Shown: positions 3,171 through 56,404 of the stretch, in pieces
Layout: every line of letters begins with the position of its first letter
Numbering within the stretch: position 1 is the first letter of the stretch
Source of the DNA: Octopus vulgaris
Taxonomy: Eukaryota
Direction: 5' to 3'
Assembly (NCBI GenBank): GCA_951406725.2
Contig: OX597823.1
Coordinates: 34,410,001-34,474,000, forward strand
DNA: 64,000 bases
The notes under the pieces: generated by a model
Databases searched by the model: none
What the model was told of the DNA's origin: nothing
The model's input: the letters and a program-made list of their open reading frames with translations, nothing else
Translations under genes and position numbers: made by a program

Positions 3171-4019
3171 GTAAGTGCAGGCCACATGTTGATTGTCTTG
3201 GGACATATCAGAAGGGAAATCCAACATATTAACTTTCTTTACTTATGTTTGTGAATAAGGGCAACATTCAGAAGAATTCAAAATCTGAATATCATTTCAT
3301 TTATGAGGGTAAATTGCTTCACATGACTATCATGTATGAAAGCTTTCCAACATATTCTACTGTTGGATGCTGCTAAACACTTTGTCATTATTTAATGAAT
3401 CGATGATAAGTTTGTCTGCTGGTGCAATTCTTGGTTGTCAGGCATTTTGAACTCGACCCTGTAAGCTAACACAAATTAATAAATTCTTCAAAATTGTGAA
3501 TTTTTGCAAAAGTGATTTGTGTATATAATGAGAATTATTTGTCAATTCTGATCCCTTTGTCTCGTAATCAATTGTGTTCCAAGTGACCATCCTGCCTTAT
3601 ATTCAGATATAATGAATCCCAAATTACATCATCCTATTAATCCTTCATTTACAAAATAATAACAACATGATCTAACTGTTATTCAAGAGTTGGCTGCGAA
3701 GTCTTAAATATCTGGGTCATGGACAGAATAGGTTGAGAGCCAAATCTGAACAATTTGGAAAATAGAAGTCTGACAGAGACACCATATAAAGTATAGACAG
3801 TCTTATAGATACATTATATGGACTGTTTTATCCTTCTGAGGAAAACATACAGCATATATATATATATATATATATATAAAATACAGTGTACATTTAAACA
3901 CATTGAGAGGTTTCCATCATAGGAATCCTTTACGCTAGAAAGAACAGCTAAAGTCCAAACCACTAATTAGGGATAAATTCTCAAATGGAATGAAAAATAA
4001 AAACATTCACCATCTCTTT

Positions 4020-4088
4020 CCTGGACCATGGTTCCTGACTTATTTTAGTAAATAAAATAATTTACCAGTCGAAGTCTTCATCAACAGG
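4020..4088 (-). ncRNA. minimal type I hammerhead ribozyme-like motif (GAAA mutated to GGAA)
   Basis: Minus strand reads cctg-TTGATGA-a-gactt...aagtc-a-GGAA-ccatgg-TC-cagg: stem I, extended stem II and palindromic stem III. Confidence 0.65.
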
Positions 4089-4199
4089 GATGCCAAAGAT
4101 TAAATATATAAACAACAAGGCCAATCCAGCATGTGCCTCATTGCTTATACATTTTAATTTTTTTCAAATCCACCGTGCAAGCACAGTCTTTTTGGCATC

Positions 4200-4268
4200 C
4201 CTGTTGATGAAGACTTTGCCTGGTAAATTATTTTATTTACTAAAATAAGTCAGAAACCATGGCCCAAG
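4200..4268 (+). ncRNA. minimal type I hammerhead ribozyme-like motif (cleavage triplet mutated)
   Basis: cctg-TTGATGA-a-gactt...aagtc-a-GAAA-ccatgg-CC-caag. Its mutations differ from those in the left arm. Confidence 0.65.
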
Positions 4269-5227
4269 AAAGAGATGGTAAATGTTTTTATTTTTTATTC
4301 CCTTCGAGAATTTATTCCTAATTAGTGGTTTGAACTTTAGCTGTTCTTTCTAGCTTAAAGGATTCTTATGATGGAAACATCTTAATGTGTTTAAATGTAC
4401 ACTGTATTTTATATGAATAATATATAGTCTATTGACTAAATTTTCTATATGCTAGGCCATTGGTAGTAAAAATTTCTAAACTCTTTATTACCCTGATATT
4501 ATTATATATATATATGCGCATGGATATATGGGTACAGGATGTCACAACAATAAACAACATAAAATACGAAAACAAATGAGTTTAATATGCAAACAGTGAG
4601 AGGAACAAATGGAAAACAGGACAAGTAACATAAAGAACGACCTTTCATCAGTTGTAGGCTGTCTATCTACTCCTCATTTCAAGCACTGAACGACAATATG
4701 AGTCTTCGAAGTCAGTTGCTCCCATAAGTACCAAAATAAAATTTGGGATTTATAGAAAGTCAAAGTTGGAAACAAAAACAGGACAGTGGAGACATACAAG
4801 GAAACCAAACGAAAATATACATGGAGGGTCGTTAGACCAGAACGAGGGTAAAATAGTGAACGCTGGAGAAATATTTTCTTTGAAAAGAGAAAAGATAGAA
4901 GAAAGAGAGAGAGGGAAGATATGTGCTGTCCTTAGAACAATCCGGAAAGAAAAGAAAGATGATCACGTGAGGAAAAGAAAGATGGACGATGGTCACGTGT
5001 AAGCAACGATAGAGAGAAAAAGAGAAAGAAGGAGAGAGAGTGAGAGAACAGGAGAAAGAGAGAGAGAGAAAACGTGAAGGGGAGAAAAAAGGGAATTAGA
5101 GAAAGGATGAGAGAGATAACGATCTTTTGTGCCATTGTTGTTTTCAATAAGAAAGAACTAGGGAAATTTAATGAAAATGCTTCGCAAAACTGACAAACAA
5201 CAATAAAAATTCAGTGATATATTGATT

Positions 5228-5425
5228 TCAAATTTTGGTCCCCAGCCAGAAATTTCAGTGGAACAGGCAAGTCGATTATATCGGCCCAGAGTTTAAATGA
5301 TACTTATTTTATCGACCTGGAAATGATAAAAGACAAAGTCCCTCCGCGGAACTTGGACTCAGAACATAAAGACAGATTAAATGCGGCTAAACATTTTGGC
5401 CGGTGTGCTAACCAGTTCGCCACCT
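5228..5425 (-). mobile_element. SINE family B copy
   Basis: Reverse-complement similarity to 137-352. Confidence 0.7.
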
Positions 5426-6534
5426 TTCAGTGATATCATACTGAGATAATGGGAATATTTGATGGGAAATGTGTGTTACGGCAACGCTATTTGGCTAAAA
5501 TCTATTACGTTCTATCAGATCCAGATCGTTAATAATTCAATATTCTCAACGATCGAAATCGTTTCACGTGTTTTTCGACCTCTTGGATAGCCATATAGAC
5601 TTCCCAGAGTCCAATAAAGACATCATCAATTCCTAATGTAAGGGGTGCAAGGTAAATCCAATAAGAATTATCTTCCTTAGCTCATAGTAAATGCATGAAT
5701 TCTCTCCCTTACATCGAGCAACGGAAGAAATAATGTTTCCGTGTTGCTGTGTTGGAACGTTAAGCAATAAAATCTCAACGAAAATAGAAAGTAGATTATT
5801 AGTTACAAAAGAGTCGTGATTCAATGTTTTGTTAGAATCGTCGGTTGTATATTTTAGAGTGAAGTCAGTACAGCTACCCGTTCTTACATTACTTAGTTTC
5901 TTGATTTTAAAAAAATATCCGGGTATTTATGTCAAAATGACAAGTTATCAAAAACTGGACAGAACTTGAAATTGTGATCGATTGATAATCGATTCGATAC
6001 TAAATGCCGCTAAGCATTTTCCCCGGCGTAATGACAATTCTTCCAGCTCACCATCTTAGCATGCCTAGACATTAATAGCACTTCGTTATGGCTTTCAGCC
6101 ACAGACTGGTGAAGCAGTTTCGATTCTAGTTGGTTCTATTAAGAAGGTATAGATCAGTAATAAATGCTGCAAAACATATATCAGAACATTCCTTACACCA
6201 GTTCTTTGTAGATCATATTCTTTTCTTGGGGTAAAATATCAATAACAGCTAACAGTTCTCAAGGTAGTAGTGGAGATTATTGGTGTATAACGAAAGGTAT
6301 GGTTTTCAAAGTTGTTCTCTCCTGAGACTGAACCTTCAGTATTTTGCAGACATGATGATGATGATGATGATGATGATACCCTTTCAAGAAATATTCTTCA
6401 GCGGAAAAAATGTTAATTGAAGATTAGTTATGTATTTCATGGTTCTCTTGAAATTTCAAACAGTCTCAAAGCTTCCTAAACAACCATGAAATTTCTGTTG
6501 TGTTTTGTTGGTTGCTGTCTTTTGTAACTTTTAT

Positions 6535-53989: not shown

Positions 53990-54218
53990 AGGCAGTGAGC
54001 TGGCAGAATCATTAGCACGCCAGGGAAAATGCTTAGAGGTATTTCATCTGTCTTTATGTTGAGTTCAAATTCCACCAAAGTCAACTTTGCCTTTCATCCT
54101 TTCGAGGTTGATTAAATAAGTACCAGTTACGCACTGGGGTCAATGTAATCAACTTAATCCCTTTGTCTGTCCTTGATTGTCCCCTCTATGTTTAGCTCCC
54201 TGTGGACAATAAAGAAAT
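53990..54218 (+). mobile_element. SINE family B
   Basis: ggcagtgagctggcagaatc...gagttcaaattcc...tttcatcctttcgagg. Confidence 0.85.
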
Positions 54219-55219
54219 ATATATTTGGTTTAACCTCAGTTAGTCACATAAGTCACTATACAGGTACAGAAAAAAAAGGCATGATTGATACAAAATCCTA
54301 TTTTCTTCTTTAATCAGCAGCAGGTTTTAATAAATCCTAATATATTTATTTCCTTTTCATATTTGGTTTCGCAAAATTCTTGCTGTGAAATCATGAGTTG
54401 AAACAGATTTTGTTGTCAATAACAAGCACACACACTGGTTGTATTTCACTTCTATTATTATTATTGATCAACTTAACCATTTTACCAATTAACTAATCGA
54501 TTATTTGATTAATTGTTCAATCAGTCTGTTCAGTTTATCATAGTCCTTTTGCCATCATTCTGACCTTATTATTGACATGCTCTCACGACTCCAGGTCTGC
54601 TCCAGGACCAGGAACAAACATGAAATAGAGAGAGAGTACATAGTTTTCCCTCACTCTCTTCCCCCCCACTCTCTCTCTCTCTCTCTCTCTCTCACACACA
54701 CACACACACACTAATATTTGTTAATTGTATGCTGTGAGACATGTTTGATCTTTATGTTTCATACTTTGTGCAAAGCAGCCCTTCATAAAAAAAAAAAAAA
54801 AAAAAAAACTACTAGTTTCTGTGGATTCTAAGTATTTGTTTTTTCCTTTGCAACTAACAACGTATAATAATTCACTTGTTATATTTACTAAAAAATCCTC
54901 AAAAGTCATGGGCGTGTCCCCTCCTCTCAAAGTAAAATAAAAGGCCTGACTACAAAAACAGCAATGTTGTTGAGTAAGTGATGAATGTGTATTGTGATTT
55001 GTCTAATTACTACAAAACAACCAATATGCAATCAATAGGTTCATTCTTTAGTATCGTTAAACAATGTAGAAATGTAACCTTGAGCTTCATTAATTTTCAT
55101 TAATGCTGTGAAGTTGCATACACAAGGGATGGTCAGCATATCAGTTCATGTAGTTAATTCAATCATCTCAACCATTCCCACCCATTAAGTAAGTAAACTT
55201 CCCACTTTGTCGTTGTCTT

Positions 55220-55568
55220 CATAATCATCATCATCATCATCAACACCATCATCATCAGCAGCAGCAGCAACATCACCATAACCATAATTGTCACCATTGT
55301 CATCATCATCATCATCATCATCATCACCATCGTTGCCATCATCATCATCAGCATTGCCATCATCTTCACTATCATTATCATCATAATCATCATCATTATT
55401 ATCGTCATCACCATCATCGTCGTCGTCATCGTCATCATCATCATCATCATCATCATCATCATCGCCATCATCGTCATCATCGTCATCATCGTCATCGTCA
55501 TCGTCGTCGTCATCATCATCATCATCATCATCATCATCATCATCATCATCATCATCATCATCATCATC
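55220..55568. repeat. long degenerate (CAT)n microsatellite
   Basis: About 350 bp of cat/cgt/cac triplets. Confidence 0.9.
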
Positions 55569-55892
55569 GTTCTATTGTCATCATCGTTTTATTGTCTACA
55601 TTTCCATGTTTGTTTATGTCAACAAACAGTATTTGTTGATGCAGATTTCTCTATGGCTAGATTGTCTTCCTGTTGCCAACTCTTACCTTGCTTGGAAACC
55701 AGCAACTCAAAAGTTCCCTCCTTTAGGTTTTCACAGAAAGTTACAAACACACAACATTACTTGTATGACATTCATTTTACAATCATCATGCCATAACAAG
55801 GCAACGAACACACACACACACACATCTGCGTGTGTGTATGTGTATGAATGTATGTGTATTTGTGTTTGTCTATATTATAATAATTATCATAT

Positions 55893-56085
55893 TCGCCATG
55901 GATAGATTGCTAGCCACTACACATTCTTTATTTTCTCTCCTTGTTTCTTTCTGTGTTCCTTTCTGTGGAAGAGCATAGGCTCGAAATGTTAGAGACTTTT
56001 TCACTTCCCGAGCATTATACTAATACATCTGTTTGTTGTCTAAACCGCCTGTCTTCGTCTTTTTTTTTTTTGTGAATTCTCCCTA
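55893..56085 (+). mobile_element. hammerhead-like family E copy
   Basis: cttt-CTGTGGA-a-gagc atag gctc-GAAA-tg-TT-agag at 55959-55994. Confidence 0.65.
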
Positions 56086-56204
56086 TATCTATCTATCTAT
56101 CTATCTATCTATCTATCTATCTATCTATCTATCTATCTATCTATCTATCTATCTATCTATATATCTATATATATATATATATATAGATATAGATATATAT
56201 ATAT

Positions 56205-56404
56205 ACTGGAGTAAGCACATAAATGTGAAACAAGGTGGAAAAAAAAGAGTACTTAAATACCAGAAGTAGAGTAATATGCTTTATTTAAAAGTACCAGAAA
56301 TATAACAAAAACTTTTACTCAGAGTTTCACGTTCCTGTTCGTCGAACGGGAACGTGAAACTCTAAGTAAAAGATTTTGTTATATTTCTGCTACTTTTAAA
56401 TAAA
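56205..56404. mobile_element. foldback element 7 (family D): ~62-bp arms with the apex inside the hammerhead core, plus left tail at (TA)n
   Basis: 56280-56341 is inverted relative to 56343-56404. Apex gttcg-t-cgaac. Confidence 0.85.

Follow-up and report, generated by a model that had tools for sequence, protein, structure and literature searches.

Seven foldbacks in an Octopus vulgaris locus are likely insertion footprints of Penelope-like elements and retrozyme-type units

Do seven short foldbacks in one stretch of the common octopus genome represent a single class of element, or have different families acquired the same shape when they were inserted? The stretch in question (the window) covers 64,000 nt of the 2.8-Gb Octopus vulgaris assembly (contig OX597823.1, positions 34,410,001 to 34,474,000), and a preliminary description of it had proposed one class of non-coding hammerhead-ribozyme elements with one shared architecture. 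We found that the seven foldbacks are better explained, with a probability of roughly 0.8, as seven independent 5'-truncated insertions of seven families with hammerhead motifs, with the foldback likely made at insertion by the protein of a Penelope-like element (PLE). This probability applies to PLE-made footprints and not to the choice of double priming over snap-back synthesis, which is weighed below. The families comprise two PLEs coding for reverse transcriptase (RT) and GIY-YIG endonuclease, three units of 310–485 nt lacking an open reading frame (ORF), and two families without an ORF link.

Inverted repeats were located at all seven places named in the preliminary description, and the elements are designated here by start position as E1 (3874), E2 (6873), E3 (13520), E4 (32143), E5 (18682), E6 (18033) and E7 (56205). 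Other parts of that description were also borne out: every element has an unpaired tail on one side (right in E1, E2, E3, E5 and E6; left in E4 and E7), the hammerhead motifs read outward, and BLAST between the natural units of E1–E7 detected no mutual similarity at E<0.01, leaving a kinship of the E2 and E3 arms suspected by eye without support. One arm per element was searched genome-wide, 40 candidates were scored and 30 fetched for each, and all rates given below hold for the best 30 only. First-look candidates, which are not copy numbers, totalled 3172 for E1, 2648 for E2, 1224 for E3, 2521 for E4, 1485 for E5, 216 for E6 and 916 for the E7 tail.

The fold turned out not to be a fixed family structure. 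An inverted arm was present in 15/30 copies of E1, 21/30 of E2, 12/30 of E3, 16/30 of E4, 9/30 of E5 (within 1.5 kb), 28/30 of E6 and 22/30 of E7, and the junction positions were scattered among copies. Elements with the PLE footprint ranged from 140 bp to 4 kb, and the fixed terminal inverted repeats (TIRs) at both ends with target-site duplications (TSDs) of fixed length that define TIR transposons and miniature inverted-repeat transposable elements (MITEs) were not found. Each family has two discrete 3' ends 30–90 nt apart (14 short, 15 long and 1 other in E2; 14 short and 16 long in E4). Where two arms could be classified, a long one was paired with a short one in 66 of 68 cases; two pairs were concordant and four more were unclassifiable. 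This count covers the sets in which the query did not force the long end (E2, E4, E4-ORF, E6-upstream and E7-upstream), with E1, E3, E5 and the first E6 set excluded as their queries favour or force it, and with L260 and L266 dropped as the partner arms of L258 and L263. The E7 counts exclude a biased set obtained with a both-arm query, and E7 junctions were read by eye.

Insertion targets were family-specific. Flanks of the (TA)n type accompanied 30/30 copies of E5, 27/30 of E6, 25/30 of E7, 16/30 of E1, 9/30 of E3, 2/30 of E4 and 1/30 of E2, so the microsatellite setting previously attributed to most elements holds for E5, E6, E7 and half of E1 and fails for E2 and E4. The latter two avoid (TA)n and show 8–16-nt target duplications above control: flank words of at least 8 nt were shared in 10/21 E2 pairs versus 4/420 control pairs, and in 6/15 and 7/11 E4 pairs versus 4/210 and 2/110 control pairs, respectively. 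The differing target types suggest that E2 and E1 rely on helper PLEs of different clades. Junctions were also unevenly placed, with fold points heaped just upstream of the ribozyme in E6 and E7. Among E6 sense arms, 27/30 start within −10 to +11 of core position 3, 12 of the 30 at one 6-bp palindrome in stem I; several E7 junctions are perfect foldbacks, and none of 30 tail-selected E7 copies, inspected by eye, extends more than ~25 nt upstream of the core. By a manual tally of either arm, the 5' edge of a tRNA-like head (described below) is where 16/30 E4 copies end, and 2/30 reach the ORF. Hot spots like those of E6, E7 and E4 were absent from E1–E3 and E5 junctions, and no junction pile-up was found at the predicted cleavage site.

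E4 and E5 derive from autonomous PLEs with RT and GIY-YIG endonuclease, and both copies are heavily truncated at the 5' end. In the window, E4 (32142..32627; inverted repeat 32170-32314/32483-32627, 92% arm identity) consists of a long arm on the minus strand (32142-32345), with its tail at 32142-32169, and a short arm on the plus strand (32348-32627). It is a stump of the 3' end of a PLE, and the family sits after the stop codon of the PLE ORF: the ORF end runs into the tRNA-like head at 30/30 loci and into the arm at 28/30. One locus (L310) holds an RT frame (PF00078, E 1.2e-9), and the C-terminus of the endonuclease was recognised by eye in translations. E5 (18682..19172; inverted repeat 18682-19140, 97–99% arm identity; tail 19141-19172, plus strand), likewise a 3'-end stump, is joined upstream to a GIY-YIG frame that has a CxxxxCxxC linker, and its arms also occur 3.5–4 kb apart, enclosing RT (PF00078, E 6.7e-8) and GIY-YIG (PF01541) frames. 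Both families display the 5' truncation, inverted 5' copy and one-sided tail of PLE insertions. The label "non-coding" thus fails for E4 and E5, for which truncation of autonomous PLEs, the other option raised in the preliminary description, was correct.

The tRNA-like head of E4, followed by a (TAA/TAG)n run, lies within the pseudo-long terminal repeat (pLTR) at 32348..32427 (plus strand) and is A/B-box-like, as judged against the A-box and B-box consensus. ARAGORN calls at a relaxed threshold were inconsistent for 10/30 heads, and a tRNA identity was not assigned. Because the ORF-end loci run into the head in 30/30 cases, the tRNA-like middle of the window copy belongs to the element and is not a later insertion of a short interspersed element (SINE). 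The E4 pLTR with its head is possibly one new variant. By its linker motif alone E5 may be Neptune-type, with Nematis also possible, and E4 may be Penelope/Poseidon-type, assigned only by the absence of that motif; the CX2-5CxxC linker is described in PMC8557442.

Further PLEs were encountered at the loci examined. An intact PLE of another family (L312:2157-7212) has an 881-aa RT and GIY-YIG frame between pLTRs; its 5' pLTR extends into the leader past the point at which the 3' pLTR ends in (TA)n, an arrangement expected under internal priming. Two stumps of this family lie in the window, at 55941-56071, in the same microsatellite as E7, and at 41411-41564, and an A6U change marks its hammerhead core both in L312 and at 41432. 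Fragments of additional PLE-like clades at L301, L302 and L313 (RT and C-x-C...CPL endonuclease frames, and another RT-endonuclease frame in L313) indicate that the genome holds many PLE lineages.

E1–E3 have a different anatomy. E1 (3874..4502; inverted repeat 3869-4097/4191-4419, 93% arm identity) lies within (TA)n and derives from a unit of ~470 nt, with a short arm at 3874-4097 (minus) and a long arm at 4191-4502 (plus) that includes a tail at ~4410-4502. E2 (6873..7353; inverted repeat 6873-7057/7116-7300, 90%) derives from a ~345-nt unit, with a short arm at 6873-7110 (minus), a long arm at 7116-7353 (plus) and a tail at 7301-7353. E3 (13520..14119; inverted repeat 13528-13704/13876-14052, 84%) derives from a ~350-nt unit, with a short arm up to ~13835 (minus) and a long arm, tail included, at 13854-14119 (plus). 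Upstream of the ribozyme, no shared ORF was reached in any of 90 loci. The sequence instead loops back on itself with a period of 452–485 nt in 8/30 E1 loci, 312–349 nt in 5/30 E2 loci and 341–390 nt in 9/30 E3 loci; further spacings of 647, 692 and 154 nt are also present. One unit has a GC content of 0.32 in E1, 0.39 in E2 and 0.41 in E3, a longest ATG-initiated ORF of 34, 61 and 38 aa, respectively, and one type I hammerhead, with a canonical core in E2 and a variant core in E1 and E3. Copies with two ribozymes occur in E1 (L036, L037) and E2 (two exact pattern matches, control 0), E2 also forms arrays of 2.1–2.4 units, E3 showed only partial tandems among its 30 loci, and no long arrays were seen among the loci examined. 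These values fall within the retrozyme range (~170–400 nt, GC <45%), except that E1 exceeds it in size. By anatomy, then, E1–E3 appear to be non-LTR (non-long terminal repeat) retrozymes, and for these three families the earlier reading as small non-coding ribozyme retroelements was sound. A further E2 copy at 26009-26177 (minus) is a single arm with a long end, cut off before the ribozyme.

E6 and E7 are tiny foldbacks. E6 (18033..18172; inverted repeat 18033-18103; tail 18104-18172, plus strand) is a 140-bp stump of a very young family: among 40 scored copies, 39 others are 100% identical over ~100 nt, and these near-identical copies represent recent insertions open to study. In longer copies, TG/TA-rich non-coding sequence stretches ~1.45 kb upstream, in one case head-to-tail. 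E7 (56206..56404; inverted repeat 56280-56404) is a 200-bp stump whose long arm, with its tail at 56206-56279, is on the minus strand; its longest shared upstream sequence of ~150–175 nt gives way to low-complexity DNA. Extension into RT/GIY-YIG ORFs, proposed as a check in the preliminary description, was thus seen for E4 and E5 and not in the sampled loci of the other families; for E6 and E7 these comprised 60 E6 loci, 90 E7 loci and 7 longer E6 stretches. An older copy resembling E6 was seen 3.5 kb downstream of a chimeric PLE ORF, and ORF candidates near E6 and E7 proved to be nested fragments of other PLEs. An apparent ORF at locus L097 was a spurious 22-nt match. In contigs from 4 of 24 public runs, summed contig depth climbs about tenfold at the 5' edge of the E6 hammerhead; contig depth is no copy number, and contigs cannot show cleavage, ends or level.

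Other observations concern the surroundings of these two families. Both tails open with a similar hairpin of a 5-bp stem just past the short end, itself located at an AATAAA-like run; this arrangement is a candidate signal for protein binding or RT start. Other foldback-plus-tail elements are nested in (TA)n beside E6 copies (L301:~560-900 and the upstream flank of L247), and different PLE families pile up in the same microsatellites. Two more E7-family copies in the window, at 51716-51881 (plus) and 16132-16276 (minus), have no inverted arm.

To evaluate the hammerhead motifs, we applied a relaxed type I descriptor to 30 sense copies per family set, with 30 antisense copies and 600 shuffles as controls. 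Sense copies passed in 14/30 cases for E1, 19/30 for E2, 5/30 for E3, 11/30 for E4, 1/30 for E5, 17/30 and 23/30 for two E6 sets and 5/30 for E7, versus 0/30 antisense copies and 0/600 shuffles in every set. No arm of any of the seven window elements passed, and a strict scan allowing one mismatch found the E2 left arm as the only arm. The motif noted in the preliminary description is therefore real at family level, and no window arm holds an intact one: six families bear a type I hammerhead motif, E5 has a degenerate one, and the window copies have all suffered decay or truncation. Helix sequences differ among families with pairing kept. Core positions follow hammerhead numbering, in part as given in PMC3088659.

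Family cores are canonical in E2, E4 and E6, read U4C in E3 and E7 and mostly U3.G8 in E1, and in E5 combine U3-A8 and A13C family-wide with a weak stem I; helix III of E6 has 4 bp and an 8-nt loop. In the window, the E1 motifs lie at 4020..4088 (minus; A13G in this copy) and 4200..4268 (plus; U16.1 mutated), and that of the E2 left arm at 7040..7079 (minus; G8A), the E2 right arm beginning inside the motif. E3 motifs lie at 13683..13726 (minus) and 13854..13897 (plus; decayed), the degenerate, hammerhead-like E5 motifs at 18760..18798 (minus) and 19024..19062 (plus), and the minimal E4 motifs at 32225..32268 (minus; G5 mutated) and 32529..32572 (plus; intact core, decayed stems). The E6 window copy is without ribozyme, its fold lying downstream of the family core, and the fold point of the E7 copy falls within the core. 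The sole zero-mismatch match of the strict scan, with a 3-bp stem I and a long stem II, lies outside the seven elements at 10205-10284 (plus). Rfam returned no hammerhead among the matches listed for the window (150 of 249) and nothing at gathering score in seven family loci; its microRNA (miRNA) matches, below gathering score and microsatellite-driven, were discarded. A natural U4C hammerhead variant has been described (PMC3088659), and 235 Rfam hammerhead-1 loci are given for the giant squid (PMC6962438).

What we observed directly, namely the family structure, the ORF links, the optional and variable inversion, the two discrete ends, the long/short pairing and the target types, can be accommodated by one sequence of events. 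A PLE RT-endonuclease would cut both target strands, in (TA)n for E1, E3, E5, E6 and E7, and by a staggered cut giving an 8–16-bp duplication for E2 and E4. The two 3'-OH ends would then prime reverse transcription within the RNA at different start sites, a far one and a near one 30–90 nt upstream, and both cDNAs would extend inward, halt early and get joined, often at a palindrome. The outcome would be two arms, an outward-reading ribozyme and a tail on a single arm. For E1–E3, multimeric or circular RNA would serve as the template in trans, yielding permuted partial tandems. The enzyme, the double priming, the trans-mobilisation and ribozyme activity are the parts of this scheme that we infer. 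The long/short pairing fits the two internal RT start sites, with extension of both strands, shown for the lizard PLE PAc/Poseidon (PMC11167929), and the hammerhead is likely a cargo of the copied end and not the maker of the fold.

Several points weigh against this explanation. The start sites of PAc/Poseidon were used in vitro without strand difference, so that no anti-correlation between arms is predicted (PMC11167929), and palindromic junctions were ascribed to self-priming instead (PMC3846280). Long/long loci exist in E5 (L127 and L346); of eight long/long calls in E1, about six are artefacts of multiple units or later duplication and two (L034, L044) stand; and E3 pairs are mixed (7 discordant, 2 long/long, 3 unclassified). 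A sequence match of an autonomous PLE partner for E1–E3, E6 and E7 was not found by BLAST, and the samples are the best 30 of 216–3172 candidates, so the rates are not genome-wide.

Self-priming of the Arkhipova type, or snap-back, would have one cDNA fold on a palindrome and extend to a hairpin, with resolution by the endonuclease leaving the one-sided tail. It is proposed in PMC3846280 and PMC8557442, also predicts one long and one short arm, and agrees with the preference of junctions for palindromes, as at the E6 palindrome and in the perfect E7 foldbacks. However, copies without detectable inverted arm also terminate 3' at the short end, many junctions carry gaps or inserts, and the arm that extends further 5' may be either of the two, with a difference of kilobases in E5; simple copy-back cannot give an arm with upstream sequence that its partner lacks, barring a template switch. 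We consider snap-back possible though doubtful. Fixed foldbacks that move as a unit, in the manner of MITEs or foldback master copies, would suit E6 and E7, which are mostly tiny foldbacks with clustered centres and no ORF link found, but sequence-identical E6 copies differ in their junctions, two hold true upstream sequence, and long non-folded E6 copies exist. With E4 and E5 running into ORFs, the arm optional in E1–E5 and TSD length varying from 8 to 16 nt, this reading is already refuted for E1–E5 and highly improbable overall.

It is also unlikely that E1–E3 are pLTR remnants of autonomous PLEs and not retrozymes. Their ORF-bearing copies could lie outside the 30 copies read per family, and a pLTR origin of retrozymes has been proposed (bioRxiv 10.64898/2026.07.22.740005); on the other side stand the upstream loops to the unit's own 3' end, the lack of a shared ORF in the 90 loci, the E2 arrays, and the fact that equal sampling did find the ORF for E4 and E5. 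Palindromes are a known artefact class of assemblies and long reads, and the foldbacks might be chimeras of this kind. The arms, however, are 84–99% and not 100% identical, many copies have TSDs, and the inverted E6 junction was recovered as a loose end from contigs of two further public runs (15 contigs in X15, 1 in X5); arm divergence and independent runs refute the chimera reading, to which we give a negligible chance. For the junction pile-ups of E6, E7 and E4, the rival to be weighed is palindrome-driven joining alone, and the reading that we prefer is run-off at the 5' end of the transcript. Tentatively, the tiniest foldbacks as a whole could be run-off products, in which PLE protein, primed near the 5' terminus of a monomeric transcript, extends both target ends as far as that terminus and then joins them; transcripts would start just upstream of the hammerhead in E6 and E7, and at a captured tRNA-type RNA polymerase III (Pol III) promoter in the pLTR in E4.

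Most of these features have published counterparts. PLE insertions are described with palindromic junctions, 8–10-bp TSDs and inverted pLTRs of which one bears a tail (PMC3846280), and with an inverted 5'-truncated copy, a tail at either end and (TA)n targets in a work that also reports Naiad PLEs in Octopus (PMC8557442). The present elements share with them the head-to-head inverted truncated copy, the tail on one arm, junction palindromes, ~8–10-bp TSDs or a (TA)n target and partial tandems; they differ in that tails are ~30–90 nt, most copies are 140–600-bp stumps, and the long/short pairing, qualitative in the text available of both papers, is counted here. Dual minimal hammerheads ~100–700 bp apart on opposite strands have been regarded as probable truncated PLEs, with a U3-A8 variant and low activity (PMC4209133). 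Our motifs resemble these in the palindromic short helix III, the extra base before stem II and U3-A8 in E5, and differ from those described there in family-wide U4C (E3, E7), U3.G8 (E1), A13C (E5) and the 4-bp helix III with 8-nt loop of E6. The in vitro work on PAc/Poseidon (PMC11167929) is paralleled by two internal RT start sites, extension of both strands, an AT-rich target and use of uncleaved RNA; in our elements, too, junctions do not accumulate where cleavage would occur. Neither a pairing of the two start sites between arms nor joined products are shown in the text consulted.

Non-LTR retrozymes have been reported from animals including a mussel (PMC7229834) and interpreted as PLE derivatives (bioRxiv 10.64898/2026.07.22.740005). 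E1–E3 agree with them as ORF-less head-to-tail units of 310–485 nt with one type I hammerhead each and a GC content of 32–41%, in a mollusc-like host rich in PLEs. In contrast, they are mostly dispersed sub-monomers to 2.4-mers and not long arrays, E1 is above the 170–400-nt range, and they bear PLE inversions, tails and TSDs that are not described in the parts of these two sources available to us. Like the Pol III-transcribed hammerhead SINEs of schistosomes (reviewed in PMC6765202), the E4 pLTR has a predicted Pol III-type promoter followed by a hammerhead, but its tRNA-like head is placed immediately behind the stop codon of an autonomous PLE ORF. MITEs resemble all seven in short length, inverted ends and high copy number, and differ from these elements, in which arms are optional and variable, the tail is one-sided, TSDs vary and an RT link exists. 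Further comparison literature was consulted (PMC8969392, PMC10886601). We found no paper on retrozymes in octopus, on a pLTR with a tRNA-like head or on a count of long/short pairing, in a search that did not extend to subscription papers, several supplements, or Repbase and Dfam, which may already contain these families.

Three more features of the window lie beside or between the seven elements. An eighth palindrome (36788-36906; 86%), outside the set of the preliminary description, stands beside (TG)n with a possible left tail. Directly after E1, 4510-4850 is a probable PLE stump in which a CTGATGA-type core could be discerned by eye on the minus strand near 4645. Immediately after the (TA)n of E5, a fragment of the RT of a long interspersed element (LINE) begins (19195-~20200, plus strand), and the same LINE flanks another E5 copy (L124).

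The above analyses indicate that the shared architecture is the footprint of PLE insertion published for other animals, seen in only some copies, and not the mark of one class. The PLE link drawn in the preliminary description was right, and its headline is not new because the architecture was already published: the elements are PLE stumps and non-LTR retrozymes, both kinds already known, with useful mechanistic constraints. PLE stumps of this kind are easily mis-annotated as MITEs or miRNA hairpins. The value of the locus is as a test bed for the mechanism of PLE integration, since the 66/68 pairing gives a number to what had been a qualitative remark, and this constraint is testable in the published in vitro system. 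If the run-off reading is true, E4 would represent a PLE that gives rise to a tRNA-headed, hammerhead-bearing SINE of its own, and the long/short rule would reflect a PLE dimer using a different start site per target strand. Mobilisation of animal retrozymes by PLEs has so far been argued from co-occurrence and phylogeny; here, ORF-less retrozyme-type units share the inversion, the two-end tail and the target signature with coding PLEs of the same genome, and this shared footprint provides genomic support for it.

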